A DNA stretch of 64,000 nucleotides from an uncultured Eubacteriales bacterium (GCA_934501435.1 CAKSTW010000003.1:67842-131841), one strand, 5' to 3'; positions 38,316 to 61,135 are shown, numbered from the stretch's first letter. Notes: a model not told the origin generated them from the sequence alone. A program made the numbers and translations.

Positions 38316-38339
38316 ATATGCACCGAAAGCGGTACATAT
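38316..38339. promoter_or_regulatory. operator-like inverted repeat (island motif, site 1)
   Basis: ATATGCACC-GAAAGC-GGTACATAT, about 60-85 nt upstream of the CPR/MPP/RtcB operon start. It overlaps a putative -35. Confidence 0.6.
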
Positions 38340-38390
38340 CGACCGATAGAATAAAGACATCGGGCAAGAGATACAAAGTTTGTATTCGAC

Positions 38391-38420
38391 TTTACAAAAC
38401 ACATTGAATTATGGTATAAT
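38391..38420 (+). promoter_or_regulatory. sigmaA-type promoter P1
   Basis: TTTACA (38391-38396), 18 nt spacer, TGgTATAAT (-10 at 38415-38420). Confidence 0.5.
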
Positions 38421-38426
38421 AGCCAC

Positions 38427-39263: not shown

Positions 39264-40775
39264 ATGATTTACTTGTCAAAATCAAAATATTGCGGACTTT
39301 GGCAATGCCCCAAAATTGCATGGATGAAAAAATACAAACCGGAAGAACTGCGGCTGGACGAAAGCGTCGTTTCCCGCATGGAAGCCGGCAACGAGGTCGG
39401 CGATCTGGCTATGGGGCTTTTCGGAGACTATGTTGAGGTGACAGCGTATAACAACGAAAAACCTGACCTTTCCAAAATGATTGAAACCACAAAAGCGGAA
39501 ATGCAAAAAGGCACGCCGGTCATCTGCGAGGCTTCTTTTGAGTATAACGGGCTCTATTGCGCTGTGGACATCCTAAAAAAGGAGGGGAACGGCTGGTCAA
39601 TTTATGAGGTCAAAAGTTCCGCAAAACACGAAGATAAAAAGGATGATAAGCCGGTATACATTGCGGATGTCGCTTATCAGAAATATGTGCTGGAAAACTG
39701 CGGCATAAAACTCACCGGGACATATCTTGTCTGCCTGAACGGAGATTATATATTTGACGGAGTCCTTGACATCAATCGTTTATTCACTGTTTCTGACATA
39801 TCAGAAGCCGTATCTGTTGAAGAAAAAAATATTTCTGCAAATCTGTCTGTTGCCGAAAAATTGCTTAACTCTTCCGATGAGCCGGATATAGATATATCAG
39901 CAAATTGCAAAAAGCCGTACCTTTGCGGATTTTGGGATTATTGCGCAAAAAACATCCCAAAACAATCGGTATTCAACTTGTATAAAATGAGGTTCAGCAG
40001 AAAGATAAAGTTCTATAAAAAAGGGATTATTACATACCGGGAATTGTTGAACAGCCCCGAAATCACCAACGAAAAACATCTTCGACAGATCGAGTTCTCA
40101 TTGCAGGATAAAGGAACCTATATCGAAAAAGAAAATATCCGTAAATTTCTTTCAACTCTCTCTTATCCGCTCTACTTTCTCGATTTTGAAACAATTCAGC
40201 CTGTCATTCCGAAATATGCAGGAACAAAACCTTATGCGCAAATACCGTTTCAGTATTCGCTGCACTGTATCGAAACAGAGGGCGGAGAGTTAAAACACAA
40301 AGAATTTCTCGCAGAATCCGGTACCGATCCGAGAAGAAAACTCGCCGAACAGCTTTGCTCGGACATTCCCATGAACGTCTGCGTTACGGTTTACAACAAA
40401 GCCTTTGAGTGCACCCGGCTTAAAGAATTGGCGGAGACATTCCCGGATTTGGCGAAGCATCTTCTCAATATACGAAAGAACATCGTCGACCTGCTTGTTC
40501 CGTTTCAATCGGGCTATTACTACAATCGGGCAATGGGCGGGTCATTTTCCATTAAAAGCGTTCTGCCTGCCATTTTCCCGGACGATCCCGAATTGAACTA
40601 TCACAACCTTGAAGGTGTGCATAACGGCGGAGAGGCAATGACGATTTTTCCGAAAATACAGTTCATGACGCCGGAGGAACAAAAGAAAGCGCGGCGCGAT
40701 CTGTTAAAGTATTGCGAACTTGATACCTATGCTATGGTTAAAGTCTGGGAAGAACTTATTCGCGCAGCAGAATAA
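39264..40775 (+). CDS. DUF2779 family protein (Cas4/RecB-like PD-(D/E)xK nuclease + DnaQ-like exonuclease region)
   Basis: MIYLSKSKYCGLWQCPKIAWMKKY; EASF...VDIL...WSIYEVKSS (D..EVK nuclease core); Cys cluster CKKPYLCGFWDYC; YPLYFLDFETIQPVIPKYAGTKPYAQIPFQYSLH. Confidence 0.8.
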   Translation: MIYLSKSKYCGLWQCPKIAWMKKYKPEELRLDESVVSRMEAGNEVGDLAMGLFGDYVEVTAYNNEKPDLSKMIETTKAEMQKGTPVICEASFEYNGLYCAVDILKKEGNGWSIYEVKSSAKHEDKKDDKPVYIADVAYQKYVLENCGIKLTGTYLVCLNGDYIFDGVLDINRLFTVSDISEAVSVEEKNISANLSVAEKLLNSSDEPDIDISANCKKPYLCGFWDYCAKNIPKQSVFNLYKMRFSRKIKFYKKGIITYRELLNSPEITNEKHLRQIEFSLQDKGTYIEKENIRKFLSTLSYPLYFLDFETIQPVIPKYAGTKPYAQIPFQYSLHCIETEGGELKHKEFLAESGTDPRRKLAEQLCSDIPMNVCVTVYNKAFECTRLKELAETFPDLAKHLLNIRKNIVDLLVPFQSGYYYNRAMGGSFSIKSVLPAIFPDDPELNYHNLEGVHNGGEAMTIFPKIQFMTPEEQKKARRDLLKYCELDTYAMVKVWEELIRAAE

Positions 40776-40965: not shown

Positions 40966-41763
40966 TCACGTCTCCCAACTTATGCAATTCAAGACTCCCC
41001 CGTCCTCGGCTATACCGTTTATATTCACGGTAATTATTTCTTTATCAAAAACTTCCTTTGCACATTTTACCGCCGTTTTATCCTTTTCATTACCGAAAAT
41101 CGGCAGGAAAATATGTCTTTCTGTTTCAAGAAAATTCAAGTAACAACCGACAGCGCTTATGCCAACGGAATCAATATACGGAAAGTCAACAACCGAAATG
41201 CCGTGTTTTTCCAACGCCTTTTTAACCTTCTGCTCGTAACCGTTGCATGACAAGGCATTACCGAGAATCGTGTTTTCATCTATAAATCGCACTACGCCGT
41301 CCGCATGACCTGTCATATCGCTTTTAAGCGACGGAATAATAATTATCCCGGCTTCAAGCAAGTTTTCAAGTTCGGTTAAAAGAGTGTTTTTATCATATTC
41401 GGGATTTTCCGAAAACACTCTGTCCGAGATAACTGCTTTTGTTTTAGAGGGTGAAAACACAACATTTCCGCCGTCAAGATTGATGTTTGAATATGTAATC
41501 GGCAAACCGAAATGCGGCGCGATATCGACTTTAAAATTTGTTCTTAATTGCGGATAGCCCGCAAGGTACCCCGGCTCATACCGAAACGATATATATTTAC
41601 CGCTTTGGGTTTTGACCGGCATATAATCTCTTGCCCAGATATCCTTTGCTCCGTCAAAAAGAGTAAATTGTTCGCCGTGATCGGATAAAGCAGAAAACAA
41701 ATTCTCCGCCGATAACGAATATTGGGGGTTGGTTTTCAGAAGTGATGAAAAATATAATCTCAT
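40966..41763 (-). CDS. agmatine deiminase / PAD_porph-like guanidino-group-modifying enzyme (pentein superfamily)
   Basis: DIWARDYMP (D.W.RD..P); NLDGGNVV; MTGHADGVVRF (TGH.D); CYLNFLETERHIFLPIFGNEKDKTAVKCAKEVF; C-terminal DGGVLNCISWE (GG..HC.T-type Cys nucleophile). Its ATG shares 1 nt with the upstream stop (TAATG). Confidence 0.75.
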   Translation of the reverse strand: MRLYFSSLLKTNPQYSLSAENLFSALSDHGEQFTLFDGAKDIWARDYMPVKTQSGKYISFRYEPGYLAGYPQLRTNFKVDIAPHFGLPITYSNINLDGGNVVFSPSKTKAVISDRVFSENPEYDKNTLLTELENLLEAGIIIIPSLKSDMTGHADGVVRFIDENTILGNALSCNGYEQKVKKALEKHGISVVDFPYIDSVGISAVGCYLNFLETERHIFLPIFGNEKDKTAVKCAKEVFDKEIITVNINGIAEDGGVLNCISWET

Positions 41764-42314
41764 TATTTAAAAGTAACTTCAGCAGAATAGTTGAATTTTA
41801 AATGTTCATTGCTATCTATATTTACTCTCTCTTCTGTATTAAATGAGAGCGTGTCAATTTTATCGCTCAAAAGCAGAGAACATCCATAAAGAGAAAATTT
41901 TCCGTGACAATCACAATAATCAGGTTTACTCTTATACAAATGCAATTCCTTTGCTATGCCGTCAGGTCCAAAGCATATCCCGTTTTCATCTTGAATTTCC
42001 TTTATCAGGACATTGTCAGAGTAAACATTATCGGTGACCGATAAAAGCAATTGACCGCCATATACACACCATGTTCCCGGTGTTGAAAACAATGGCGCAG
42101 AAACAGCATTTTGCGCTTCAGCCTTTGTCTTTTCAGCACCATAACATATTTTCTTTCCTTTATTATCATATTCTTCATGGTAATAAGCTTCTGTGGATGT
42201 AATCATATATTTTTTTATTCGGTTGCCTCGCTGAAAAGTAATTGTCGCTCCCAACAAACCCTTGGCAACAGTAGCAGCATCTTCCTTAAAAAAATCTTGT
42301 GTAAATTTGCTCAT
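41763..42314 (-). CDS. divergent AAG/Mpg-fold (3-methyladenine DNA glycosylase-like) protein
   Basis: FFKEDAATVAKGLLGATI...YMITSTEAYYHEE matches the LLG...IVETEAY motif. TPGTWCVYGGQLLLSV...NVLIKEI matches the G..YVY..YG...LN.V...VLIRA motif. GPDGIAKEL matches GPGKL. An insertion follows the TEAY motif. TGgTATAAT and SD AAAGGGAG lie upstream. Confidence 0.65.
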   Translation of the reverse strand: MSKFTQDFFKEDAATVAKGLLGATITFQRGNRIKKYMITSTEAYYHEEYDNKGKKICYGAEKTKAEAQNAVSAPLFSTPGTWCVYGGQLLLSVTDNVYSDNVLIKEIQDENGICFGPDGIAKELHLYKSKPDYCDCHGKFSLYGCSLLLSDKIDTLSFNTEERVNIDSNEHLKFNYSAEVTFK

Positions 42315-42409
42315 TTCAAATTTCTCCCTTTGTTTTTACTCCATTATACCACGCTTAAACAGCCTACCGTCCGCGGCGATTTCTAAGGTGATTTAACTGT
42401 CAAAAGGTA

Positions 42410-43351
42410 TCACGCATCGGTCGTTTTACCGCAAAGTTTTTCTTTGATCCGGGTTTTATACCCGATAAACTCCGAATTATTCGGGTCAACAGAAAGCACA
42501 TAGTTTATCCGTCCCAGCAGTTTCCTCAAATAAACAGTCTCGTTATCCGTATTTCCTTTCTTTTCAAGATGACTCCTGATTCCGTATTTTTTACAATAGT
42601 ACATCTCCTGTCGGACATTCTTTCTGTACGATGCTGCCACATTCGGTTTTTGATTGACAACGATCCCGGTAACAGACATTTTTTGTCCATTACATACACA
42701 AACCGTCTTTTTTTCATTTAAGAAAAAACCGAGTTTTCCGAGTTCGCCTGATACAAAACATTTCAAAACCGACGGTTCAAAGACCCCCGAAAAAGTCATA
42801 TCGTCACAGTAGCGTGTATAGGTTATTCCTCTTTCACGGCACCAACTGCCGACAGTATTATCAAAATCCCGCATAATGATATTGGATATTGCCGGAGATG
42901 ACGGTGCGCCCTGCGGCAGACAGCCTTTATAACAGCACAAGACAGACAGCAGAACCCCGTTCGACTCGGAAAAAATTCTGTCATTGAAAACAATATTTCT
43001 GACAAGCGCATAGGTAATTTTATCAAAGAAATGCCGGATATCAAGTTTCAGCAACATCGCGTGTCCTGCATGCGGCTTTGCATTTTTCAAAGGGCTGCCG
43101 CCGAATCGGTATGCGGTTGCATACGGAGAAAGTTCGATTCGGTTCAGAATGACATTCGTAATTTTCTTTTGCACCGCTTTAAGCTCTTCATCCGGAACAA
43201 ACAGTTTGCGGTATTCGCCGTTTCCTTTGGGAACAGACGTTTCATGATAATGCGAATTGATTGTATTGCTGAGAGTGTACAACATTTTTGCCGAGCATCC
43301 GAGATCGGTTTCGAGGGAGGAATGCTCCCGATAGATAATCATATTTGGCAA
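42410..43351 (-). CDS. retron-type reverse transcriptase
   Basis: 313 aa. LKNAKPHAGH (NAxxH); LLKLDIRHFFDKI (motif A); LPQGAPSSPAISN (motif B); YCDDMTFSG (motif C); MSVTGIVVNQKPNV (retron VTG motif). SD GAGGGAGG. A structured non-coding region lies immediately upstream. Confidence 0.9.
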   Translation of the reverse strand: MPNMIIYREHSSLETDLGCSAKMLYTLSNTINSHYHETSVPKGNGEYRKLFVPDEELKAVQKKITNVILNRIELSPYATAYRFGGSPLKNAKPHAGHAMLLKLDIRHFFDKITYALVRNIVFNDRIFSESNGVLLSVLCCYKGCLPQGAPSSPAISNIIMRDFDNTVGSWCRERGITYTRYCDDMTFSGVFEPSVLKCFVSGELGKLGFFLNEKKTVCVCNGQKMSVTGIVVNQKPNVAASYRKNVRQEMYYCKKYGIRSHLEKKGNTDNETVYLRKLLGRINYVLSVDPNNSEFIGYKTRIKEKLCGKTTDA

Positions 43352-43368
43352 TCCTCCCTCTTTTTAAG

Positions 43369-43597
43369 TAACGGAACAAAACAATGAGTATATCGAAGTT
43401 GTGGAGCTGATGAATCGTGCACATGAAGTGTGCCTAGCATCAGTGGAATCAACTTTGATTGAGCATAGCGAATGCCTGTAAATATCGCTGTCCCGATAAC
43501 GACTCGCCATCGGTGTCAATATATTCGCGGTAATACGATGTCCATTGACCTGCACTAATGTTCCGTTATCCTTTTAATCGGTTTTTAATGTTCAGGC
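43369..43597 (-). ncRNA. retron msr-msd non-coding RNA (predicted)
   Basis: Read on the minus strand. a1 UAACGGAACA (43559-43568) is complementary to a2 UGUUCCGUUA (43369-43378, 18 nt before the RT ATG). UUAGUG with a candidate branching G follows a1. Internal hairpins are CCGAU..AUCGG, AGCGA..UCGCU, AAUCAA-AG-UUGAUU and CUGAUG..GCACA-CUUCA-UGUGC..CAUCAG. Confidence 0.7.
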
Positions 43598-43603
43598 AAT
43601 TAC

Positions 43604-43632
43604 ATTATACCACCCTTTTGTTATTTTGACAA
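43604..43632 (-). promoter_or_regulatory. sigmaA-type promoter of the retron
   Basis: Minus strand TTGTCA (43627-43632), 17 nt spacer, TGgTATAAT (-10 at 43604-43609). Confidence 0.65.
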
Positions 43633-46406: not shown

Positions 46407-48431
46407 TTATTCCGCAACACAAAATCCTATCGGATTTTTGCGTTTTTTTGCGGCGGCGGGAGGGTCTTCAATGTCTTCGGCGCAAATTGTGATAATGTCA
46501 TCTTTTGCAATATGATCAAAATCCATTTGAAGCAATCTGGTTGCCTGCGCCATTTTTGCTTTTTCAATCACATTACGGGCATAACGTCCGTTGCCGAACT
46601 CGCTTTCTTCTTTGGCAAAATCAAACAAACCGGTCAGTTTTTCACGGGCGTCTTCCGTTAATTTCATGCCTTTTTTCTTTGCAATCAGATTTGCGATCTT
46701 GCAGAGTTCATCAGTATTATAATCGGCAAAAGGAACATGAAAAGCGATTCTGGATCTTAAACCGGGATTCTTTTGAAGGAACTTTTCCATTTTATCGGGA
46801 TAGCCTGCAAAGATTACGACAACATCGTCCCTATGATTTTCCATTTCCTGAACGATCGTATTGATTGCCTCGTCTCCATAGGAACCGTCCCTGTCATCAA
46901 CGAGAGAATATGCTTCATCTATGAAAAGCACGCTGCCTTGAGCTTCGCGGAATTTCTTTTGAATCGTGGGAGCAGTCCATCCCACAAACTTGCCGACAAG
47001 ATCGCCGCGCCCGACCTCGATAAGTTTTCCTTTGGAAAGCAAATCGTTTTCCTTCATGATTCGGGAAAAGAGTCTGGCAACAGTTGTTTTTGCAGTACCG
47101 GGATTCCCGCTGAAGACCATATGCATGGCAGGTCTGTCTCTCATCATAGCCTTGTCTGCAAAGAGTTTCTGCGCCTTGTAATAATTCAACGCCTGAATTA
47201 TTACTTTTTTAGCCTCATCAACTCCGATCATTTCCATCAGTTCATCGTAAGCGGATCCCTTCGGAGCCGCCTTTACAACTTCGCGCTTTGCAGTCATAAT
47301 GTCTTTATACTGGGGGAAAACACCGGTTTTGAGTTTATTATTGAACCATTCGTCAAATATCTCGTGAAGATCCGGAGCCAAATACCCTTTCTCATTTTCA
47401 AGCGCTGAAAACAATTTCTTATCAGGTCTGATTCCATTGTCTTTTGCGAGCATTTTCAGAAACCGTTCCGCACGCTCCCCTGAAACAAAGTCTTCTTTCA
47501 ATTCAATGAAACTGATATTTCCGAGCTTCTCGCAGAACATTTCTTTTGACTTTGTACATTCGCGAGGAAGACAGAACACCGTAAGTACCAGGTTGCGGTA
47601 TTTTCTCATTATTTCACAAAGGGTTTCGATTGTATCCCTGCCGCAAGACGCGTGTTCGTTTTCTCTGTCATCGTTCGCAAGATATCTGACGATGACCGCT
47701 CCGCCTATACTGCTTTTGTAAAGGCAGTCATAAGCATCGGAAGAAAAATCATCGCCGGGCTTAAAATCAAGGAAGCAGTATCTTTTGCTGCGCAGCCTTC
47801 CGTTTAAATAAAGAGACTGAAGAAGAAGCCTATACATACTCTTGCGTGTTTCGCGATCATCGGTTTGCACAAAATAGTGCACGGGATGCCCAAAGGCACG
47901 GCGCATACTTTTTCCCGCAAATATCCGATCGAGTTCGGGAATGACAGAGTCTCTCGCAAGAAAACGGTCGGCTTCTTTATAGATTTCATCTCTTTTCGAC
48001 TCATCCAGAAGGTTTTCGCCGTATTCAACATTTCTTTCGTTTCTTCCGGTAAGCTTATCTAAACCGAAAAGTTCAAGGACCTCATCATCGTCTTCGATAT
48101 AATCGTTTTTGTCTGCACAAAAGAGCATATTCCGCGTGGCGCTCAAAGTAGTCTCTTCAATATATATGTCTTTTAAACTGATTTCAATCGCAGCCAAAAA
48201 CGATGATATCTGTTTATCAAGATTGGCAGGCTCACGGCAAATAACTCCAATGGTTGCAGTGTCTTCAGATACGCTAATAATATAGAAGAAATTTCTTTTT
48301 TTCTGCTTTTGGTTAAACGCATTTCCTTTCATGGCAATCTTGCGGACGTTTTCACGCATTATATGTCTGTTATTATATCTTTCCGACCAATCCTCATCAG
48401 TTATGATACCGTTGGCTTTGAAAAACTGCAT
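46407..48431 (-). CDS. SpoVK/CbbX-type AAA+ ATPase with a ~400-aa unknown N-terminal region
   Basis: Walker A FSGNPGTAKTTVARL, Walker B VLFIDEAYSL, VVIFAGY (sensor 1 region), NPGLRSRIAFHVPFADY. SD GGAGG. Confidence 0.85.
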   Translation of the reverse strand: MQFFKANGIITDEDWSERYNNRHIMRENVRKIAMKGNAFNQKQKKRNFFYIISVSEDTATIGVICREPANLDKQISSFLAAIEISLKDIYIEETTLSATRNMLFCADKNDYIEDDDEVLELFGLDKLTGRNERNVEYGENLLDESKRDEIYKEADRFLARDSVIPELDRIFAGKSMRRAFGHPVHYFVQTDDRETRKSMYRLLLQSLYLNGRLRSKRYCFLDFKPGDDFSSDAYDCLYKSSIGGAVIVRYLANDDRENEHASCGRDTIETLCEIMRKYRNLVLTVFCLPRECTKSKEMFCEKLGNISFIELKEDFVSGERAERFLKMLAKDNGIRPDKKLFSALENEKGYLAPDLHEIFDEWFNNKLKTGVFPQYKDIMTAKREVVKAAPKGSAYDELMEMIGVDEAKKVIIQALNYYKAQKLFADKAMMRDRPAMHMVFSGNPGTAKTTVARLFSRIMKENDLLSKGKLIEVGRGDLVGKFVGWTAPTIQKKFREAQGSVLFIDEAYSLVDDRDGSYGDEAINTIVQEMENHRDDVVVIFAGYPDKMEKFLQKNPGLRSRIAFHVPFADYNTDELCKIANLIAKKKGMKLTEDAREKLTGLFDFAKEESEFGNGRYARNVIEKAKMAQATRLLQMDFDHIAKDDIITICAEDIEDPPAAAKKRKNPIGFCVAE

Positions 48432-48477
48432 ATTGATACCTCCGTACTCTTTTCTTTACGGTTATACTATAACGCAA

Positions 48478-48503
48478 GTAAAGCACCGTTTTTGGTGCTT
48501 TAC
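48478..48503. promoter_or_regulatory. operator-like inverted repeat (island motif, site 2)
   Basis: GTAAAGCACC-GTTTTT-GGTGCTTTAC with perfect 10-bp arms, 47-72 nt upstream of the AAA+ ATG. Confidence 0.6.
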
Positions 48504-48743
48504 TGTCAATAAGAATAATTTTGTCAATCGATCGTATGTTGACCGGAATATCATCCTGCGTCCGTTCAAAAAGTGTCCGGGAGAATAACTGACAAGATAT
48601 CACGGCGAATATCAGCGATAAGGATAGTCCACTCGTCAAATACTTTCCCGCAGATTGCGCATTAAATCTTTGCGGCTCCCGATCTGCTTTTTTCTTCTGT
48701 ATAATCTCCTGTAACTTCATTCAATTCTTTATAATTTATTTTT

Positions 48744-50015: not shown

Positions 50016-50039
50016 CAATGCACCTAATATGGTGCATTG
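50016..50039. promoter_or_regulatory. operator-like inverted repeat (island motif, site 3)
   Basis: CAATGCACC-TAATAT-GGTGCATTG with perfect 9-bp arms. It lies just upstream of a TATAAT on the minus strand. Confidence 0.6.
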
Positions 50040-50086
50040 CGCAGTCCCCGTTACAGGTTCTTTTTTCGGTATCATTATATCAGCGA

Positions 50087-50110
50087 CAATGCACCGAAAA
50101 CGGTGCGTTG
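50087..50110. promoter_or_regulatory. operator-like inverted repeat (island motif, site 4)
   Basis: CAATGCACC-GAAAAC-GGTGCGTTG, with one mismatch between the arms. Confidence 0.55.
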
Positions 50111-51205: not shown

Positions 51206-51802
51206 ATTATAGCTCCTTGTCGTTTTCCGTATGTTAAAAACATAATCTTAAACAGATTATACCGTACCATAAAAGTCACGCCCGTTTTTGGTACATTTCA
51301 TTCTTTTATTTGCCCGCAATAATATTTATATCAACAAACACGCGGAAGGTCACCTTGATTACCGGGTCCGCATTTTATTTCTTTCCGGTCTTTTTAGGTT
51401 TTCCATTGTTCCGTAACGGTTGCCGAAGCTTTAACTTTGGCAACAAACCGATTACAATCACCTTTTACTTTATTATACTCATTTTTGAAATACGAGTCAA
51501 GACCTTAAAATTCAGGCTTTATCAAATTCACCGTAATACGACGCAGAGGAAATATCTTTTATCTTCCGGTTTCAGGATATCCGCAACTGTAAAAAGCCCT
51601 TTGCGAAAAGGATTTCTCCTCTCGCAAAGGGAAAGCTGACGAGTAAAATTTTACAGTACGGTTTTTCACAATAAAATGATACCGGAAGCAATGTACCGGT
51701 TTTGATGCCCCGCCGTTCAATTTCAATCGGTTCAAAGTTTTCTCTGCCATACCTGTCAAACATACAACGCCGCTCACATTTGTGTCTCTTCAGATCCTGA
51801 CT

Positions 51803-53785
51803 TTATTCTTCTTCGGCTACCGCGCTCTCGGATAGCATCTTTGCGAAATGTCCTTCGGTAATAATCTTCGTTCCATAGTTCAATGCAGTTGAAAGTTTTT
51901 TTGTTCCCGGCGCTTCACCGACGATCAGATAGGTTGTATTTTTCGTCACGGAATCATTTACATTTGCTCCGAGGAGTTTCAAAAGTTCGGTGATATCCTT
52001 GCGGTTCATACCGTTCACGGTACCGGTCACCACAACATTGGCATTCACAAACGGATTACCCTCTTCCCCGATTTTAACGGGCTGGTCAATAAAGGTAATT
52101 TCTTTCAAAACAGGTTTCCACAGTTTTGCTTCCGTCTCATCAGCGTACCATTTATAAATATTTCTGCTTAATGTTTGGGAAACGCCGGCAATATGAAAGA
52201 AACAAAACTCCTCTTTGATTGCTTTCTCGAAATCGTCCCACGATCCGAGAAAATATTCGTCAATCGCTCTGGCATTATTGGGTCCCATAAGCGGAATGCC
52301 GACTGCAACCAGAAACTGCGCCAGATGGCATCGTCTGCTGTTCTCAACGGCTGATATTAGTTTATCATAAGTCCCATAGCCAAATCCGGGCGTTGTCAAA
52401 ATCCTCTCGCGGTACTTTTCCAGATCATACAGATCCGCAAAGGTTTTTACAAATCCGTATGCCATCAACTTTTCGAGAACAGAGGCATTGAAGCCTTCCA
52501 TATTCATTGCATTTTTATCGCAGAATCTTGCGATTTTCTGAGCGTTTCTGGCAATACATTCTTCATTGGGACAATATAGGTTTTTTGTACCGCCGGAAGC
52601 GATCTTAAGTTCAAGTTCACTTCCGCAGCAGGGGCATCTGTCGGGAAGTTTATATGTCCCGCTCCGGGTAACGTTTTCCGAAATCTGAGGGACAATCATA
52701 TTGGCTTTATATACTTTAATTGTGTCGCCGATTCCGAATTCATACTTCTCAAAATTACTGAGAGAATGAATATCTGCCCGCTTAACATAAGAACCGTCAA
52801 TCAACACCGGATCGAATTCGGCGCAAAGAGTTATCATTCCGTTTCTTGTTGTAGCAAGTTCCACTCCACGGAAGACCGTCTCGTATTCGTCATCCTCCCA
52901 CTTAAGGGCAAGCATTCTGTTCTCATGGTGCGCAGTGGCTCCGAGGCTTTTGCCGAATGAAAGATCATTATATTCAAAAATGAGCCCGTCAACAGGATAA
53001 TCGTATTTTTCGGGATTAAAACTTTCAATGGTTTTTTTAAGCGCCGTCTCTCCGGAAAACGCATGAATAAGTGTATGTTCAACTACATCAAAGCCGTTTG
53101 CCGAGAGAAAGTCCAACTGTTCCTCTTTCGTAGTTCCGCCATCACCGGGAAGGATCAGTTCAAATGCGTAGAAATCCATATGAGAAAGGTTTCCCTTGTC
53201 GGGGGTCAGGCTTCTCACAAGCCCGGCGGCAACGTTTCGAGGGTGACTCGGTGAATTATCTCTGTTGAGCAGTTGATAATCTGCCCATGAAACAACTCCT
53301 TCACCCCGAACCTCAAAACTCTTTCTGCAATTCACTTTTTTCGGTATGTTACGGAGATATCTGACCGTATTGGTAATATCCTCGCCCACAAGCCCCTCTT
53401 CGCCTCTGGTAACGGCTTGCTTAAAGTTCCCGTCCTCATATCTCAGTACAAGAGTAAGTCCGTCCATTTTCCAGGATAACATAACATCGTTTCCGGCAGC
53501 AAAGTGAGCGACATCATCAACTGACTTTGTTTTCTTAGCCGAAAGCATAGGTCTGGAATGCTCAACTTTTTTCAGTTCGGTCTTATTACAGCCGCCGACC
53601 CGCTTTGTCGGAGAGTTTGCAAATACAATACCGGTGACGGCTTCCAATGTTTTCAGTTCATCCATTAAGGCATCGTACTCCCTGTCCGTCATGACAGGAT
53701 TGTCTTCGCCGTAATATGCTTTATCGGCGTCCTTAATAATTGAAATCAGTTCTTTAATTCTTGAAACATTATTTTTTTCCTCCAT
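51803..53785 (-). CDS. ligA: NAD-dependent DNA ligase (LigA family), divergent island-borne copy
   Basis: Domain Ia YYGEDNPVMTDREYDALMDEL; adenylation lysine SWKMDGLT; TRGEEGLVGEDIT; Zn finger CPCCGSEL...YCPNEEC; HhH region; C-terminal BRCT (VVVTGTVNGMNRKDITELL...YLIVGEAPGTKK). Confidence 0.85.
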   Translation of the reverse strand: MEEKNNVSRIKELISIIKDADKAYYGEDNPVMTDREYDALMDELKTLEAVTGIVFANSPTKRVGGCNKTELKKVEHSRPMLSAKKTKSVDDVAHFAAGNDVMLSWKMDGLTLVLRYEDGNFKQAVTRGEEGLVGEDITNTVRYLRNIPKKVNCRKSFEVRGEGVVSWADYQLLNRDNSPSHPRNVAAGLVRSLTPDKGNLSHMDFYAFELILPGDGGTTKEEQLDFLSANGFDVVEHTLIHAFSGETALKKTIESFNPEKYDYPVDGLIFEYNDLSFGKSLGATAHHENRMLALKWEDDEYETVFRGVELATTRNGMITLCAEFDPVLIDGSYVKRADIHSLSNFEKYEFGIGDTIKVYKANMIVPQISENVTRSGTYKLPDRCPCCGSELELKIASGGTKNLYCPNEECIARNAQKIARFCDKNAMNMEGFNASVLEKLMAYGFVKTFADLYDLEKYRERILTTPGFGYGTYDKLISAVENSRRCHLAQFLVAVGIPLMGPNNARAIDEYFLGSWDDFEKAIKEEFCFFHIAGVSQTLSRNIYKWYADETEAKLWKPVLKEITFIDQPVKIGEEGNPFVNANVVVTGTVNGMNRKDITELLKLLGANVNDSVTKNTTYLIVGEAPGTKKLSTALNYGTKIITEGHFAKMLSESAVAEEE

Positions 53786-53858
53786 ATCCGCACCTCTTCT
53801 TTTCTTTATACACGAATTATAGCAACAGTAATGTACCGATTATATCCCGCTGAAAATT

Positions 53859-54476
53859 TCATGCTTCCTGTTGATGCTTTTGCATTTCGTTTTCTTTGAT
53901 AAGTTTCATATACCAACCGTCAACGCAAAGTCTGAGGATCGAACATTCATAATTTATTGCGGAATATGTGCATGAGTCTTCCAAACAAGCGGTTTTAATG
54001 GCCAATGAAGAAGTAAGCAATTTGAATTTCTCGTCATTGATATAGAATACTTCTCCCGGAGTCAAATCGCCTTTAATATCGTCAATAACAATAACCGGCC
54101 GTATTCTGCCGCCCGTATCTCCGTCATAAGACCGGTTTGCGTTGTTGTTTGAAACGCAATAATGCTCGTATAACCACCAGTTATCTTTTGTGTCCGGAAG
54201 ATTGTTGCATAACAAATCAAAATCATGCCTTGTTAAAAGTGAAGCTCCGACGGTTTTAACGGTTCCTTCTTTTTTCCCTTTTCCGACATAACGGAGAGTT
54301 GCCTCACAACGTTCGGTAGTAGTAAGGAGCCTGGCTTTTTCTCCTTTTTCTTTATTATTCTTTTTATATACTGCAGATCTGCAGCCATTGAGGGTATTGA
54401 TGGTTTTTTCAATTTCCTCTTCGGACATAGAGGACAAAAGTTCTTTCAGTTCATTTGTAAAATCATTCTTATTCAT
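53859..54476 (-). CDS. hypothetical protein (205 aa)
   Basis: Track ORF 53859..54494, trimmed to ATG 54476 (MNKNDFTNELKEL), 6 nt after SD AAGGAG, which overlaps the upstream stop codon. No motif recognised. Confidence 0.6.
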   Translation of the reverse strand: MNKNDFTNELKELLSSMSEEEIEKTINTLNGCRSAVYKKNNKEKGEKARLLTTTERCEATLRYVGKGKKEGTVKTVGASLLTRHDFDLLCNNLPDTKDNWWLYEHYCVSNNNANRSYDGDTGGRIRPVIVIDDIKGDLTPGEVFYINDEKFKLLTSSLAIKTACLEDSCTYSAINYECSILRLCVDGWYMKLIKENEMQKHQQEA

Positions 54477-54486
54477 TGTGAACTCC

Positions 54487-56013
54487 TTACTCATCGACTT
54501 TTATTCTGCCGATCTTTCCCCACGGCGGATTTCTGTCTTCGTTATTGATTAACCAAAGGACAGGGATACCTCCCGCCTCACTTTCGGCAGGAAACTCGTC
54601 GTAGCCATCTGTAATTATGATGATATATGCCGGCGGCTCATCTGTCATGTTTTCGTTCATATAGCGGAAAATAGCAGAAAAGTCATTTCCACCGCCGCCG
54701 ACCGGCTTAATTTCCATGACATCCTCAACTGACGAGAACGGTATTGGCACCGTAACGTAACTTTCCGTAAAACTTAACCAGCCCTCCAGTTTCCCGTTAA
54801 ATTGATCAATTGCAGCACATATCTCGCTGTAAGCAGCACGGATAGCATTGTCCCCGATAGATCCTGAGGTATCTATCAGAAACCATATATTTTTGACACC
54901 GGACTCTTTTTCATTAAAGTCGGGTAAAAGAAACATACTGTCCTGAAAGCGCCTGTCCGGTGGATTAAAAGAATAATCGTTTATTTCTTCCTGAACAAAA
55001 TCCTGTAAAACTTCTCTCCAGTCGGTTTGCGGTTCTGTTAATTCCATGAGAATTCTTTGAGCCATCAAAGGTGGTCCGCCATAACCTTCATGACTATCTT
55101 TGATACTGATTATTCTGTTTGCGATTGTAGTAGCTTCAATCATTCTCTGAAGCCAGATATCTTTTGAATATCCATCATCTGTTTCGCTCTTATTATATGC
55201 GCTGCAATGGTTTGATTCATATTCTTCTCCATATTCATTACAGCTTTGCCCCGGTGACCCCGTATCACCCATACCCCAGTAGGTGTGATCATCAAAGCCG
55301 CCGTCAAAACGCGCGGGACCGGTGCCGCCTTCACCGCTGCCGCCTTCATCACTGTCGCCATCACCACTGCCGCCTTCATCATTGCCGCCTTCATCACTGT
55401 CGCCATCACCACTGCCGCCTTCATCACTGTCTCCTTCACCACTGCCGCCTTCATCACTGTCGCCTTCATCACTGTCTCCTTCACCACCGCCGCCTTCATC
55501 ACTGCCGCCTTCATCATTGCCGCTGTTCATGGGATTATTTTTCTTTTTTTCAGTCTCATTACAACTATGAACTAGTTTGTATACTTCTTCTGCCGAATAC
55601 TCGTAACCTTCCTTTCCGTCAGGAGCAATATGCATGCTCTCACCGTAATTTTTTAAAGTGATTTTCGAGAGATCCATATCAAAGGAATACAGAATATTGG
55701 AATTAACCACTATGTCACAAGCTGTATTAAAATCATCGAAGTCATAAGAATCCGATTTTCTGTTGCAATGGTTCAGCGCGGCATGGAGTACTTCATGCAT
55801 AAGAACAAATTCAAGTTCTTCATCCGATAGGGAATCTATAAAATCCGGACAGAAAACGATCCGGCTCCCGTCTGTGTAGGCAGTCTCGCACATAGGGTCA
55901 AGTGAGAATTGCATATGAAGAAGAAGTACCGCATAGAACGGCTGCTTTCTCATCAAAGAAAGCCGAGACGCCTGCAGTCTCTTTACAATTTTCAATACTT
56001 CTTTACTGAACAT
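54487..56013 (-). CDS. HExxH metallopeptidase-like domain + acidic repeat linker + vWA (MIDAS) domain protein (DUF2201-like)
   Basis: N-terminus [12 protein letters not shown]...[16 protein letters not shown] (HExxH). Central (G/S/D/E) repeats. C-terminal v[13 protein letters not shown] (MIDAS DxSxS) ...IIIITDGYD. Overlaps the MoxR gene by 11 nt. Confidence 0.8.
55321..55525. repeat. imperfect tandem repeat (units of about 15-30 nt) inside the vWA gene
   Basis: Repeating ACTGCCGCCTTCATCACTGTCGCCATCACC-like units encode [10 protein letters not shown]-type acidic repeats on the minus strand. Confidence 0.9.
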
Positions 56014-57121
56014 TTCCGTTTCTTAACCTTCCTCTTTTTTCGGCATATTCCAGATATTCCGGTACAGACCGAAGAAACTTCTCGTAATCCTTTTCAAAAA
56101 TTTTATAGTTTTGAATCAAAAGTTCGCCAAAATCCGCAGGAAGCCGTTTTGCATAAGAAATTGAATTACCGATGGCTACTGAATCATATCTATGTTCACT
56201 TGCATAAGCCGTCATGGAGGATACGAGCGCATACTTTGCGTCTGCTCCTTTCGGAACATCAATTGTCGTTCCGGAAAAAACAGCATCCATAGTCGGAAGA
56301 TCGTTATAAACCTTACACCACGCTCTGAATTCAACAGCCGCCCCAGAACCGATCAGACCGGCAATCATCGGATACATAGTTGCCACATTATCCTTTACGT
56401 TATTAAGCAGGCAACTTACCATTTCCCATGAACGGGGTGTAGGAAATGCCAAATCATCATTTGTTGCATCAAACCCGAAAAGTCTGTCATTCCGAAAAGA
56501 GAGGTATCCGAGGACCTGACTGTTGATACCGACTTTTACCGCCCATTTTCTCCATGATTCAAAGCTGCCTTCAATTTCAATATGAAGAAGACGATTTGCA
56601 AGAGCTTTCGGCATTTTGAAAGATACCGACTTATCCGTGACCCGGTTTCCGGCAGCAATTACAATACAGTTATCAGGCAGTTTGTGCTCACCGACGACTC
56701 TGTCCAGCGTGATCTGATAAGCAGCAGCCTGAACCGATTGAGGCGCTGCCGATATTTCATCGAGAAACAGAATGTTTATAACATTGTTCCCGGGATCCAT
56801 TTGAAAGATTTTCGGCTTCAGCCAAACAGCAAGCGTTCTATCCTCACTTGCAACAGGGATGCCCCGAAGGTCAATCGGATTAAAAAGGAGAAGCCGCACA
56901 TCAATAATTTCAACATGTTTGCCCGTATCTGCTTCGATCGTTTTTGCAATCTGACGGACAGCCTGAGATTTACCGACACCGGGAGGTCCCCAAAGCATCA
57001 CGGAGGGTAATACTTTCGGGGAAAGCCCCGCCTTTATGACGCTCAGATACGATTTGCTGAGCATATTTACGGTTTTGTCAATAGATAATATCGGAAGATT
57101 TGTGGATACTGTACTTTCCAT
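56003..57121 (-). CDS. MoxR-like AAA+ ATPase (AAA_5-type)
   Basis: Walker A LWGPPGVGKSQ, Walker B ILFLDEISAA, IVIAAGN (sensor 1), PKALANRLLHIEI. Confidence 0.85.
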   Translation of the reverse strand: MESTVSTNLPILSIDKTVNMLSKSYLSVIKAGLSPKVLPSVMLWGPPGVGKSQAVRQIAKTIEADTGKHVEIIDVRLLLFNPIDLRGIPVASEDRTLAVWLKPKIFQMDPGNNVINILFLDEISAAPQSVQAAAYQITLDRVVGEHKLPDNCIVIAAGNRVTDKSVSFKMPKALANRLLHIEIEGSFESWRKWAVKVGINSQVLGYLSFRNDRLFGFDATNDDLAFPTPRSWEMVSCLLNNVKDNVATMYPMIAGLIGSGAAVEFRAWCKVYNDLPTMDAVFSGTTIDVPKGADAKYALVSSMTAYASEHRYDSVAIGNSISYAKRLPADFGELLIQNYKIFEKDYEKFLRSVPEYLEYAEKRGRLRNGNVQ

Positions 57122-60100
57122 TATGATGCCACTCCTAATTCTTCATTCAGTTCTTTCAGTTCATTTCTTAATTTGTCAATTTCGTCCGCGTAACCCTTGA
57201 TTTCTTTATTCAGTTCTTCTTCTGTAATCTTAAGTTTTGTTTCAAGACTCAGAAGAACATCTTCGTACTTTGCTTTCTGTTCATTAAGACTTTCAAGAAA
57301 ATTATTCAGCCTTGCAGTAATACCGGACTCGGATTCGATCTCAAGGTAGTAAGTATTATTTTTGATAAGGTGTACGTATGGAATCGGCTTTCTTGCCACA
57401 GAAATATCTTCGCCGGAGCCCTGTGCGTCCTTTCTTCTTTCCGGCCTTCTCGGAACCATGTATGCCGGAACAACAACCTTGAATCCCTGAAAAGTCAAAA
57501 CTTCAACAGGTTCAGGATTATTACTGTGAGACTGAACCGCTCTGTAAATTGCTTCACGGATCGCCTTCTGGTCTTCGTACTTCATTGATTTGTAATCAAT
57601 CTTTTCTTTTTGGTACGCATCAATGTCCATTTGACATTTGGCAATTCTCTCCTTCTGTTTCTCAATTTTGGTCGGCAGTTCTCTGACAATCTGTTCCTTC
57701 TTCCTGTGATTATCCATATAATCTTTCTGAAGGATCCTGTACTTATCCAGTTCGTTGCACACTTCAACTCTGCGTTTGATTTTCGGATTACCGACCGCAA
57801 GGGCTTTCACTTCAGCATAATTCAGAACCGTGTCGTCAATATCGGTTCCGTCTCGCATAGTTGCCTCTCCTGCCATAATCTGACTGATAAATCTCTGTTT
57901 TGTTTCAAGAAGCTGCCAGGAATATGCATCAAAACTTGCTTTGGTAATATATCTGAAGATTTGTACCTTCTTATTATCATTTCCCCGGCGAAGAATCCTG
58001 CCTTCCCTCTGGACCATATCAGAAGGTCTCCACGGCACATCGAGGTGATGAATAGCCGAGAGACGCTTCTGAACATTCATACCATGTCCCATCTTTGCAG
58101 TGGAACCAACGAGTACGGCAATTTCACCCGCACACATTGCCTTGAAAAGATCCTGCCGCTGAATGTCGGTATCTGCATCGTGAATGAATGCAATTTCCTT
58201 TTCGGGCATTCCCATGGCAATGAGCAGAGTTTTCAGTTCATCATAAAGATTAAATCCTTCCTTGGGCGTAGAAATATCACAAAACACAAGCTGTGTTCCT
58301 TTGGTATCTCTGGTGTTTTGATAGACCTCGTAAACATTTTCAGCGCAGCGAATAACTTTAGAATTGAGATCCAGACCGAAAGCTGTATCAATAAGGCGCA
58401 TATCAAGCGCGGCTTTTCTCCCGTCGGAAGTTACTTTCAGCATATTGTCTTCTTTGATGGTTACGCGTTTCTGCCTGATATCATCGGCACGATTGCCGAT
58501 CTCCCGCAGATAATCCCTGAAGTCGTCGGACCCTTCCCGCAACGAATCTTTGTATCCCTCCAGTTCGGGAATTCCGGCTGTTTTATCAACCTTATGAAAA
58601 TCCGCAACGGAAGCAAGCGTCGCCGTCAACTCCGGAATGTTGCAAAATCTCGAAAAACGCGTAACGAGGTGATAACTGTTTGTATCAACGTCAATCTCAA
58701 AATCTGTCGTCTTTTCGGCATACATTCCTGCCCATGCATCAAAATTCTGGATTTCCTGAAATTCAAGTTCGCCTTCCTGAAGATACTTCTGTATGACAAA
58801 GATATCGGAAAGTGAGTTTGTTACCGGAGTACCGGTTGCAAATACAATTCGGCCTCCGTCATTCATCCGTTGAATGCAGTGAACCTTATCCATCATACCG
58901 TTACCTTTTGCAGCTCCGCCGCTTCCGAGGCCTCTTACTTTTGAAATTCTGCTTTCCAGATCAATGTTCTTATAGTTATGTGCCTCGTCAAGAAACAAAG
59001 TATTGATTCCCAACTCATCAAAAGGCATGGTTTTAGGTGTTTTTCTGTATGAAAGCTGAAGTTTGTTCAGCGACTCCCGAATATGCCTGCGTTTTTTTTC
59101 AATCGTTGTTTTCGAGTAAAAGTTCTTTGTTGCCTTTTCCAGTAATTCAAGGCGTTCTTTATACAACATGATATAATATCTGTCCGAAAGCGAAAGCATA
59201 TCGAAACAGCTGTAAGTCATCAGGATCGCGTCAAAATCCTCATTCTTAATTTGATTGAGCGTCTCGCTGCGCTTATGGGGTCCGAAATTTTTGATGCTGA
59301 CGGTAAAAATATTTGCATCAGGGTACATGGTTTTAAAAATACTTTCCCACTGACCTATAAGGTTATTCGGCACAACATAGAGGTTCTTCTTTGACTTGCC
59401 GAGCCTTCTGAGTTCCATACCTGCCGCAATCATAATATAGGTCTTCCCTGAGCCGACGTCATGGGCAAGAAGCGTGTTCGGAGAAAAGAGTATCCTTGCT
59501 ACTGCATTCTTCTGATAATCATAAAGTTTGACTTTATCGCTAAGCCCCGGAAGTTCAAGAAAAGAACCGTCATAAGTTCTCTTTTTAATGTTTCCGTATT
59601 TTCTGCAATAAGCAGCCTGCAATCTTTTCTTTCGGGCTTCATCTTCCCAAACCCAATTTCGGAAGATATCGATCATATATTTCTGCTTTTCAAGAAGTTT
59701 TACTGTTTCATCCTGATTTATGACTCTTACTTTACAATTGGGATCGCTCGGATCCTTGGAATCAGACACAGAAAGAGTCTTCATATTAAGAGTATTTTCC
59801 AAAACATAAAGCATGTCCATTCGATCCGTTCCGTAAATTTTATAATTGACCTCTTCAAACATGCCGTGAAAATGACTTGTCCGGAAACGCGTCTTTTCGG
59901 GGATTTCCCAATATCCCGTATACTCATCATGGCGAACGGCATAGTCGTTCTCCTGACTGATGCAGTAATATTCTTTGGCTTCCTTGCTGTTAAGATTCCC
60001 TCCGAAAGCCATGTATGCAATAAAGTCATCAATAACATCAGTCGGAACCCACGGAGAACCAAGCGTTACATAGATATCTTCTGTTTCGATGTCAGGTTCC

Positions 60101-61068
60101 AGTATCCCTTCAAGCGCCGTAACATTATTCTGAAAATATCCGTTATAATTTTCATTGGCCTCTTTAGCCACTTTATATTTGTGCATAAGGTTACCGGAAA
60201 GATACTCGTCTGCGGTTTCCCATCCCTTATAAAAAACCTCATTCCAATGAAGAGGATTCTGATAAATAGACCCTCTCAGGGTTTCAATGACCGTTTTCAT
60301 ATCTTCGCCTGTTACTGATGCGATAAATTCAATGTCAACAAGTCCGAGCATATCCAGAGACATCATAAGGGCGTCGGACATGGAATCACAGCGTTCGGAG
60401 GCTCTGGCATCATCGTCATAGGCATTAACGAAGTCTATGGGAAGGTCCATTCGCGTGACCTCATTTACATGCTCAATGCGTTTCTTTTCACGACGCGCTG
60501 CCGCACGTCTGGCTGCAGCCTGTCTGCGCTTATTCCATGCTTCGATTTCTTTCTTCCTTTTTTCCGCTTCCTCTTCAAGTTTCCGTCGTGTTTCTTTTTC
60601 ACGAGCCTCAAGACCGGCGACCTTCAGAGATTCAATGGCGATATCAAGATCTTCAAAGGAAAGGACCTCTCCGACATCTTTCAGTGCATTAAAGAAGTTG
60701 TCCATGCGTTCATTGCGGATTTTCGCGGCGGAAACAAGGTCAATGTACTGATACTTTGAATAATCCGTTGAAACTTTTTCATTGCTCATATGATGGAATG
60801 CGCGAACTTTATAATAATAGGATCTCCCGTCCGGAACATAAAATTCTATTACGGGCGAAGCACTGCTCCCCACTTTGACGTACTTCCCGCGCGGCGTCTC
60901 GCTCTGATACACTTCATAGATTTCAGCGCCTACTATGGCTTTTATTCTTACAAGAACCTGCGTTCCGCTTACAAAGAACGAAAACTCCGGAACCACAACT
61001 TTAAAAGTGTCCTCTGCGTATTCCGGCTTTTCCCCCTCAATGATATTAGTAACATCTGCCTTTTTCAT
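57121..61068 (-). CDS. SNF2-family helicase (1315 aa) with a long N-terminal extension
   Basis: Motif I LLAHDVGSGKTY, motif II LFLDEAHNYKN, motif III FATGTPVTNS, motifs V-VI LVGSTAKMGHGMNVQ and QREGRILRRGN. The pre-helicase segment (EYLSGNLMHKYKVAKEA...VTLGSPWVPTDVIDDFI...YDGSFLELPGL) resembles, from memory, the helicase half of large plasmid/phage methylase-helicase proteins. I see no NPPY/DPPY methyltransferase motif. Confidence 0.85.
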   Translation of the reverse strand: MKKADVTNIIEGEKPEYAEDTFKVVVPEFSFFVSGTQVLVRIKAIVGAEIYEVYQSETPRGKYVKVGSSASPVIEFYVPDGRSYYYKVRAFHHMSNEKVSTDYSKYQYIDLVSAAKIRNERMDNFFNALKDVGEVLSFEDLDIAIESLKVAGLEAREKETRRKLEEEAEKRKKEIEAWNKRRQAAARRAAARREKKRIEHVNEVTRMDLPIDFVNAYDDDARASERCDSMSDALMMSLDMLGLVDIEFIASVTGEDMKTVIETLRGSIYQNPLHWNEVFYKGWETADEYLSGNLMHKYKVAKEANENYNGYFQNNVTALEGILEPDIETEDIYVTLGSPWVPTDVIDDFIAYMAFGGNLNSKEAKEYYCISQENDYAVRHDEYTGYWEIPEKTRFRTSHFHGMFEEVNYKIYGTDRMDMLYVLENTLNMKTLSVSDSKDPSDPNCKVRVINQDETVKLLEKQKYMIDIFRNWVWEDEARKKRLQAAYCRKYGNIKKRTYDGSFLELPGLSDKVKLYDYQKNAVARILFSPNTLLAHDVGSGKTYIMIAAGMELRRLGKSKKNLYVVPNNLIGQWESIFKTMYPDANIFTVSIKNFGPHKRSETLNQIKNEDFDAILMTYSCFDMLSLSDRYYIMLYKERLELLEKATKNFYSKTTIEKKRRHIRESLNKLQLSYRKTPKTMPFDELGINTLFLDEAHNYKNIDLESRISKVRGLGSGGAAKGNGMMDKVHCIQRMNDGGRIVFATGTPVTNSLSDIFVIQKYLQEGELEFQEIQNFDAWAGMYAEKTTDFEIDVDTNSYHLVTRFSRFCNIPELTATLASVADFHKVDKTAGIPELEGYKDSLREGSDDFRDYLREIGNRADDIRQKRVTIKEDNMLKVTSDGRKAALDMRLIDTAFGLDLNSKVIRCAENVYEVYQNTRDTKGTQLVFCDISTPKEGFNLYDELKTLLIAMGMPEKEIAFIHDADTDIQRQDLFKAMCAGEIAVLVGSTAKMGHGMNVQKRLSAIHHLDVPWRPSDMVQREGRILRRGNDNKKVQIFRYITKASFDAYSWQLLETKQRFISQIMAGEATMRDGTDIDDTVLNYAEVKALAVGNPKIKRRVEVCNELDKYRILQKDYMDNHRKKEQIVRELPTKIEKQKERIAKCQMDIDAYQKEKIDYKSMKYEDQKAIREAIYRAVQSHSNNPEPVEVLTFQGFKVVVPAYMVPRRPERRKDAQGSGEDISVARKPIPYVHLIKNNTYYLEIESESGITARLNNFLESLNEQKAKYEDVLLSLETKLKITEEELNKEIKGYADEIDKLRNELKELNEELGVAS

Positions 61069-61113
61069 TCAAGCACCTCTGATTTGTTCTTATACCTGTA
61101 TTATACAAAATGT

Positions 61114-61135
61114 AATGTCCCGTTTTCGGTGCAAC
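61114..61135. promoter_or_regulatory. operator-like inverted repeat (island motif, site 5, degenerate)
   Basis: AATGTCCC-GTTTTC-GGTGCAAC, 46-67 nt upstream of the SNF2 ATG. It lies next to a TGTATAAT -10 on the minus strand. Confidence 0.5.

Follow-up and report, generated by a model that had tools for sequence, protein, structure and literature searches.

A palindrome in -35-less promoters of repair and defence genes, and a candidate WYL-domain regulator, in gut Clostridia

The 64,000-nucleotide (nt) stretch analyzed here, hereafter the window, comes from the genome of an uncultured Eubacteriales bacterium (GCA_934501435.1, CAKSTW010000003.1:67842-131841) and contains an island that includes genes for a cREC-domain protein and RtcB, an AAA+ operon, a retron, an SNF2-MoxR-vWA module, a LigA-family ligase, and a transcription factor with WYL and WCX domains and a putative helix-turn-helix (HTH) (Table 1). 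Several of these units are preceded by a palindrome that, seen in the gene-sense strand, reads ATGYACC-N6-GGTRCAT (20-24 bp) and stands at a constant distance from a -10 hexamer. In all, eight or nine promoters of the window have it. Below we describe these sites, their recurrence in related genomes together with orthologues of the WYL protein, and the type of regulation that they may mediate.

Table 1. Motif sites and transcription units of the window, with positions counted from its first nucleotide.
Feature	Position	Strand	Elements or basis of assignment
Motif promoter, palindrome 12271-12294	12271-12307	+	TTATGTACC-AAATTC-GGGACGAAC, 7 nt, TATAAT at 12302-12307
Palindrome 38316-38339, flanked at 7 nt on both sides by -10 hexamers	38303-38352		TATTAT 38303-38308 (minus), TAGAAT 38347-38352 (plus)
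Motif promoter, palindrome 48479-48502	48466-48502	-	TAAAGCACC-AAAAAC-GGTGCTTTA, 7 nt, TATAGT at 48466-48471
Tandem pair of motif promoters at a distance of 71 bp	50003-50110	-	palindromes 50016-50039 and 50087-50110; TATAAT 50003-50008 and 50074-50079
Degenerate copy 51275-51298 upstream of the WYL gene	51256-51298	-	AATGTACC-AAAAAC-GGGCGTGA; TATAAT 51256-51261
9/10 half-site match 51689-51712	51597-51712	-	CGGGGCATC-AAAACC-GGTACATTG, 7 nt, TATCAT 51676-51681; strong hairpin terminator 51631-51597
Promoter-proximal half-site only, before ligA	53816-53837	-	GGTACATTA, 7 nt, extended -10 TGcTATAAT
Motif promoter, palindrome 61113-61136	61100-61136	-	GGTTGCACC-GAAAAC-GGGACATTA, 7 nt, TATAAT at 61100-61105
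HTH-WYL-WCX transcription factor (HTH putative), 333 amino acids (aa)	50204-51205	-	predicted binder of the palindrome
cREC-domain protein, metallophosphoesterase, RtcB	35185-38264	-	driven by the TATTAT side of palindrome 38316-38339; Pfam matches
Rightward unit including DUF2779/Cas4-like nuclease	39264-40775 (nuclease)	+	TAGAAT side of palindrome 38316-38339
AAA+ operon: AAA+ 674 aa (46407-48431), 318 aa, 125 aa, 427 aa	down to 43657	-	Pfam AAA/AAA_lid_6
167-aa coiled-coil gene	49465-49968	-	doubly promoted by the motif, between the WYL stop (50204) and the gene
SNF2 1315 aa, MoxR AAA+, DUF2201 metallopeptidase-vWA, 211-aa gene	57121-61068, 56003-57121, 54487-56013 (first three)	-	Pfam
LigA-family ligase	51803-53785	-	TIGR00575, 454 bits against a cut-off of 444
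158-aa gene and GmrSD-like gene	12360-12836 and 12863-14644	+	GmrSD_N Pfam; PADLOC HEC-05, E = 7.5e-161
Retron unit: reverse transcriptase (RT), glycosylase-like and PAD-like genes	40966-43632	-	canonical promoter TTGTCA-17-TATAAT

A preliminary description of the window had listed five full copies of the palindrome, and all five were recovered: a search of both strands of the 64 kb with ATGCACC-N6-GGTGCAT, allowing at most 3 mismatches, returned exactly these 5 matches against 1.13 expected, a number reached by none of 100 dinucleotide-shuffled sequences. The 16-nt core GCACC-N6-GGTGC with at most 1 mismatch gave 4 matches versus 0.47 expected, and a position weight matrix built from the five palindromes scored its own sites at 22.5-32.6 bits, compared with 11.1 bits at most for the best background match within genes. 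On the same matrix, a sixth full palindrome, which the earlier list had missed and which lies outside the island at 12271-12294, scored 15.8 bits. The palindromes are real and nonrandom, and chance is excluded as their origin. Their intergenic location also holds when true gene starts are considered; a 107-aa open reading frame (48397-48720, minus strand) that runs across the motif at 48479-48502 and the start codon of the AAA+ gene is probably not a gene, and no homologue of it was found in any of the loci retrieved.

On the sense strand, at every full site in the window, exactly 7 nt separate the 24-mer from a downstream TATAAT, TATTAT, or TATAGT. The corresponding composite, GGKRC-N11-TATNNT, has 10 matches in the window versus 1.02 expected; 8 of them are intergenic and oriented toward a gene 30-105 nt away (starts at 12286, 38324, 48487, 50024, 50095, 51697, 53837, and 61121), and the 2 inside genes (39413 and 57946) correspond to the chance level. 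The sites had been said to overlap or abut -35/-10 elements, but no -35 element is present at any of them: with spacers of 16-18 nt allowed, TTGACA is matched in the window at 1-3 of 6 positions at best, and at no more than 3 of 6 in any of 68 nonredundant motif promoters, which is poorer than at random positions. Canonical -35/-10 promoters are present in the same window at 38391, 43632, and 51500. When the distance from palindrome to -10 hexamer was tabulated with no preset spacing over 103 orientations, 11 nt occurred in 30 and 12 nt in 9, with counts of 0-8 at other distances. If the -10 hexamer is placed at -12..-7, the half-sites fall at -39..-35 and -28..-24(-23), with the core 11 nt and the 24-mer 7 nt from the -10.

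Both half-sites are equally constrained, with 30 sites in which both are perfect against ~0 expected, and 14 and 12 sites with five plus four matching positions against 0.8 and 0.5 expected; this symmetric constraint fits binding by a homodimer. Sites with a single half-site and a -10 hexamer occur at the chance level (18 versus 14.4 and 23 versus 14.2 expected in 790 kb), and the half-site in front of ligA therefore carries no weight alone. Of the three degenerate copies proposed earlier, the one at 51689-51712 matches 9 of 10 half-site positions and is in register with TATCAT, that at 53830-53837 is also in register but belongs to the chance-level class, and the copy upstream of the WYL gene is degenerate and 6 nt off register.

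We compared the island with 57 genome loci (725 kb; individual loci carry L numbers) from gut and rumen Clostridia that encode homologues of the WYL protein at 28-91% identity; homologues of this protein number in the thousands. The strict composite occurs 33 times in the 57 loci, compared with 0.07 in Markov-shuffled controls (~500-fold). At least 16 loci carry it in the promoter of their own WYL gene. In approximately 15 of the 57 it comes immediately past the WYL stop codon and precedes a "cargo" gene that varies among loci, the same arrangement as in the window. Families driven by the motif across the WYL loci include SNF2, AAA+, cREC/RtcB, DUF2779, GmrSD, metallophosphoesterase, ClpP-like protease, and UvrD. 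In individual loci, of this set or of the metagenome scan described below, homologues of the window genes stand behind the motif for SNF2 (L003, L006, L007, L018, L028, L033, L034, L063, and L113), AAA+ (L026 and L027), the 125-aa protein (L071 and L144), cREC (L001 and L102), DUF2779 (L005), and GmrSD-like genes (L003 and L012), and soluble FtsH-like AAA-M41 proteases are motif-driven in 4 WYL loci. Such FtsH-like proteins of ~430 aa (AAA plus peptidase M41, no membrane anchor), often encoded first past the WYL gene, belong to the most frequently motif-driven families and were observed in L004, L019, L029, L047, L062, L082, L098, and L109. The order of the four-gene AAA+ operon (AAA+/318/125/427 aa) is kept after the WYL gene in L001, and SNF2-MoxR-vWA synteny beside the WYL gene is found in more than 12 loci. 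The WYL gene is the only partner common to all variants of the island.

The closest genome, L055 (98% identity in GreA and 94% in LysRS), has its WYL gene adjoining LysRS, with a consensus autoregulatory site (L055 6641-9878). Relative to this arrangement, a 10-kb module comprising SNF2, MoxR, vWA, the 211-aa gene, and LigA is inserted in the window between the WYL and LysRS genes (51205-63881), and the absence of the module from L055 identifies the island as a site of variable cargo at a fixed locus. The order GreA-LysRS-WYL is also seen in L006, L044, and L054.

The window WYL protein matches the Pfam profiles WYL (PF13280; E = 1.6e-8, 34.8 bits against a cut-off of 21.8) and WCX (PF25583; 26.6 bits against 23.9), as do 17/17 and 16/17 of its homologues, respectively; the match to HTH_11 is weak (E = 1.2e-3, 19.1 bits, under the 25-bit cut-off) and recurs in 10/17 homologues. 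PADLOC returned only generic WYL models for this protein. As a single sequence, it had no match in the PDB. A profile of the 17 homologues retrieved as best chains 7u02, 7tzv, 9cu3, 9pfq, and 8tp8 (E = 3e-7 to 1.4e-6), deposited as "WYL domain-containing protein" or "DeoR-family transcriptional regulator" and which we take to be DriD, followed by PafC at E = 9e-3. The N-terminal 70 residues are the best-conserved part of the protein, and the recognition helix of the putative winged HTH, ERKAxxRN, is kept even in L129, at 36% overall identity. The helix diverges in three homologues, of which two lie in motif-free loci (L052 and L056) and one (L043, LKRKAVAAN) has a site, such that helix conservation appears to track motif presence as a broad trend. 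Domain searches of the island proteins revealed no second recognizable DNA-binding protein. The WYL gene itself has a canonical promoter, TTGACT-17-TATAAT, at 51500-51472 on the minus strand, from which an untranslated stretch of ~265 nt extends to the start codon (51206-51500).

Within the window, the motif promoters serve several units of the island. The palindrome at 38316-38339 may serve divergent promoters, of which the rightward one, toward the DUF2779 unit, is in more doubt, owing to a canonical promoter another 40 nt on, at 38391-38420. The ligase gene had been assigned to the regulon on the strength of its own half-site; it is instead probably co-transcribed with the SNF2 operon, at its end, to judge from a gene order that is conserved in L063. 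Between these genes and the WYL gene, at 51597-51712, a terminator with a 14-bp stem stands ~45 nt past the motif-like promoter, and this segment may encode an inducible small RNA of ~80 nt, or the hairpin may do no more than terminate the ligA operon; a search of 35-64 kb against Rfam at E ≤ 0.1 gave no match, including at 51.6-51.7 kb. Outside the island and amid housekeeping genes, 12360-14644 forms a small separate defence islet, motif-driven, with the GmrSD-like gene representing a type IV restriction enzyme. The SNF2/MoxR/vWA and AAA+ operons matched no named system in PADLOC, which reported only generic helicase and ATPase similarity. The 167-aa protein, which might also be considered as a regulator, is a conserved target: it has no DNA-binding signature, only a weak coiled-coil and DIP1984-family similarity.

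As already described, the retron promoter is free of the motif. The window scan found no site at the retron unit, which has a TG-TATAAT promoter of its own at 43632-43604. Its RT gene (42410-43351) matches the PADLOC RT_Ec107-like model at E = 1e-125, the msr/msd region probably lies within a gap of ~250 nt, and the two downstream genes show partial matches to methylpurine-glycosylase and PAD_porph. In L064, a motif promoter is located 212 nt upstream of an RT gene whose product is 38% identical to that of the window.

A metagenome scan with ATGYACC-N6-GGTRCAT-N9-TATAAT, in which no protein served as anchor, yielded 91 stretches. Homologues of WYL, SNF2, MoxR, vWA, AAA+, and DUF2779 proteins are encoded near the motif in these loci, and L129 proved to be a true, distant WYL orthologue (36%). 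In ~27 loci, the motif precedes a gene for a homologue (~58% identity) of the 167-aa protein, and other targets include SNF2, cREC, the 125-aa protein, FtsH-like proteases, a PLD-helicase, retron RT, and recA. Approximately 18 matches were discarded as a terminator-like hairpin, GATGCACCTTTCGGGGTGCATC, followed by a T-run; this hairpin, GATGCACC-TTTCGG-GGTGCATC plus T-run, belongs to one abundant gut organism (L059, L068, L070, and ~15 further loci). Proteins of L065, L069, L107, and L119 that had been considered as distant WYL homologues were also set aside, being members of a different family of ~340 aa with only an 80-aa stretch in common. This family (210-350 aa, ~33% identity to the WYL protein over the 80 aa) is itself repeatedly motif-driven, as the first gene after the motif in these four loci and at 15554 in L005. 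The composite is not a phage feature, viral contigs having given only 1 match.

In Christensenellales, recA has the same palindrome-N11-(-10) promoter ~60 nt upstream (L138 2087-2121; L149/L150 ~9915-9950; L151/L152). Lineages whose RecA proteins are 93-100% identical have retained both half-sites, their 11-nt register, and the -10 hexamer in an upstream region that has otherwise diverged. In this group, the conserved recA promoter motif places the palindrome in a DNA-damage response. UvrD, LigA, RtcB, and FtsH/ClpP-like proteases, which the motif serves in other loci, are of the same damage-response character.

The preliminary description had proposed that one repressor coordinates these units. 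The conservation of motif, register, and targets in dozens of Clostridial genomes bears out its first half: very probably, one sequence-specific dimeric regulator coordinates them, and the island WYL protein is the best candidate, the palindrome being most likely its binding site. The second half is probably wrong, given that the sites lie upstream of the -10 at an invariant distance and no -35 is present. We regard it as fairly likely that the palindrome is the site of a homodimer of the island WYL factor within a -35-less composite promoter, and that this factor would activate a repair and defence regulon; the fixed register, the symmetric half-sites, and the absent -35 fit an activator of the DriD/PafBC type and not a repressor operator. 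Activation as such seems to us distinctly, if not overwhelmingly, more probable than repression.

Under the proposed mechanism, the composite promoters, with a sigma-A -10 hexamer and no -35, would be nearly silent alone, and the regulator would be made constitutively from the canonical promoter at 51500-51472. By analogy with characterized WYL proteins, the signal is probably a product of nucleic-acid damage, for instance single-stranded DNA, bound by the WYL domain. The ligand-bound homodimer would then bind ATGYACC-N6-GGTRCAT, take the place of the -35 element, and recruit or adapt RNA polymerase, a mode of action established for DriD and PafBC. The window regulon would comprise the cREC/metallophosphoesterase/RtcB unit, the AAA+ operon, the 167-aa gene, the SNF2-MoxR-vWA-211aa-LigA operon, and the distant GmrSD/HEC-05 unit, with the divergent DUF2779 nuclease unit and the short RNA as further possible members. 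The earlier view of the 26-kb region as a single regulon accordingly holds for several units only: the retron and the WYL gene are on canonical promoters, and the regulon reaches outside the region, to 12271.

Several observations weigh against activation by the WYL factor. The similarity to solved relatives (7u02 and the other chains) is low, detectable only by profile at E ~1e-6 and restricted to WYL-WCX, and an AlphaFold2 model from an 18-sequence alignment (mean pLDDT, the model's confidence score, 50.9) was too poor for the fold to be assessed. The window WYL gene has no in-register consensus site, its degenerate copy lying 17 and not 11 nt from TATAAT. L001 shares this out-of-register variant; in most orthologues, by contrast, an in-register consensus is present. 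Autoregulation is clear in relatives and not evident in the window. Control of recA is seen for Christensenellales and not for this organism. Finally, three features would suit a repressor operator at which the WYL protein, in the manner of BrxR/CapW, or another protein blocks RNA polymerase until released by phage or damage: a dimer over -39..-24 would also occlude the polymerase; a TG-extended -10, possibly activator-independent, is found in 13 of the 68 motif promoters; and the proximal half-site GGTACAAT in several relatives' WYL promoters could be the -10 itself, which would imply autorepression.

Many WYL regulators encoded beside defence genes are indeed repressors (PMC9122601; PMC13622015). 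Nevertheless, we consider repression through such an operator unlikely. Once derepressed, the promoters would still have no -35 (at most 3/6 in 68/68), and most are devoid of TG. Occlusion needs no invariant 11-nt register, which is a hallmark of DriD/PafBC activation. In the profile search, the solved structures closest to the protein are the chains that we take to be the activator DriD, followed by the activator subunit PafC. In addition, the BrxR operator (R-BOX) is located downstream of a complete promoter, where it acts by steric block (PMC9122601), and not in the -35 place. No operator of this kind, over a complete and self-sufficient promoter, is found here, as the promoters have no -35 and carry the site in a fixed register ahead of the -10.

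It is considerably less probable still that another regulator, encoded elsewhere in the genome or, unrecognized, within the island (for instance the cREC or 167-aa protein), binds the motif and that the linkage to WYL reflects co-residence only. The poor site in the window's own WYL promoter and the 340 unannotated N-terminal residues of the cREC protein would be compatible with such a regulator. However, the motif recurs in the WYL promoter in at least 16 genomes and right after the WYL gene in ~15, only WYL is common to all island variants, the conservation of the winged-HTH helix broadly follows the motif, and the 167-aa, cREC, and other small proteins have no DNA-binding domain and are absent from many motif loci.

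We give hardly any credence to intrinsic terminators or RNA hairpins, an alternative-sigma element, or chance: although a simple scan weakly flagged palindrome 38339-38316 as terminator-like and the ~18 discarded metagenome matches are real terminator-like hairpins, no T-run follows the sites at 48479, 50016, 50087, and 61113, no convergent gene ends at the motif sites (the true LysRS terminator is separate from 61113-61136, at 61281-61252), the half-sites are conserved in sequence and not co-varying, and the predicted starts lie downstream of the sites; the two-fold symmetry and half-sites spaced by 11 bp are dimer-like, with GGTRC just 11 nt from the -10, which speaks against a sigma element, and the palindrome, composite, and 725-kb counts exclude chance.

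Activation by a WYL homodimer has its closest parallel in DriD of Caulobacter crescentus, whose pseudo-palindrome overlaps the absent -35 at a constant distance to the -10 in all its promoters (PMC13004042). Both are single-gene HTH-WYL-WCX proteins (the HTH being putative here) with a (pseudo)palindrome of ~20 bp (ATACGAC-N7-GTCGTAT there, ATGYACC-N6-GGTRCAT here), both sites occupy the place of the missing -35 at a constant distance to the -10 (a likeness that involves no numerical comparison of the spacings), and both have a small protein as a predicted or known induced target, didA there and the doubly promoted 167-aa gene here. By contrast, the window protein comes from another phylum (Bacillota) and is of low similarity, with a different half-site and a spacer of 6 and not 7, and its putative regulon consists mostly of genes of a variable island, for RNA repair, SNF2/MoxR/vWA, AAA+, and defence.

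The mycobacterial WYL activator PafBC acts by "sigma adaptation", as a heterodimer that places one HTH on DNA at an asymmetric motif. Its promoters, tGTCgg-N10-tAnnnT, have the element at -28..-23 and no -35 (PMC8635444). The HTH-WYL-WCX architecture and the hybrid promoter are shared, the proximal half-site GGTRCA occupies the positions of the PafBC element, and both regulons include recA (here for Christensenellales) and repair genes. The site described here differs in being symmetric, which implies a homodimer with both HTHs on DNA, and has no pup-proteasome context. DdaA of Moraxellaceae, a WYL activator at the palindrome CGWCA-N5-TGWCG, controls repair genes, including recA, and defence systems (PMC12392091). 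Repair and defence targets are mixed in the same way here; the motif and lineage are different, and the targets here are RtcB, SNF2-MoxR-vWA, a retron (L064), and GmrSD.

With BrxR/CapW, which are often autoregulated, the system shares a WYL regulator inside a defence island, inverted repeats, variable neighbouring cargo, and, in relatives of the window protein, autoregulation (PMC9122601). It departs from them in that the site stands in a fixed register in place of the -35 and recurs at many dispersed promoters. The LexA/SOS boxes of Firmicutes are likewise palindromes over dispersed repair promoters, with recA included in one lineage here. The LexA box is GAAC-N4-GTTC and takes variable positions over complete promoters. 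The motif described here is not GAAC-N4-GTTC, and no LexA-like protein is encoded here.

A broader interpretation is more tentative, and we put it slightly below an even chance: the system may represent an undescribed, LexA-independent response to nucleic-acid damage in gut and rumen Clostridia (Oscillospirales and Christensenellales-like), in which a DriD-like homodimeric WYL activator acts on a 35-bp plug-in promoter placed on recA, RtcB, SNF2/MoxR/vWA, AAA+, proteases, and changing anti-phage genes (GmrSD/HEC-05 and retrons). WYL activators responding to damaged nucleic acids are known from Actinobacteria through PafBC, from Caulobacter through DriD, and from Moraxellaceae through DdaA, and the SiwR regulon is also known; full-text literature searches found no counterpart WYL activator regulon in Bacillota.

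If confirmed, the composite would be a fourth independent promoter type in which a WYL factor replaces the -35 element, and a motif, a regulator, and a regulon would be defined for abundant, mostly uncultured gut Clostridia. RNA repair (RtcB/cREC), DNA repair (LigA and, in relatives, recA and UvrD), and anti-phage genes would then stand under one switch, and ATGYACC-N6-GGTRCAT-N9-TATAAT would provide a metagenome signature for inducible defence and repair genes, such as the 167-aa, 318-aa, 427-aa, and ~340-aa families and the soluble FtsH-like proteases. Should the broader interpretation be true, whole defence islands would be inducible by one damage signal, and the window would hold one such island, at the recombination-prone LysRS-GreA locus.

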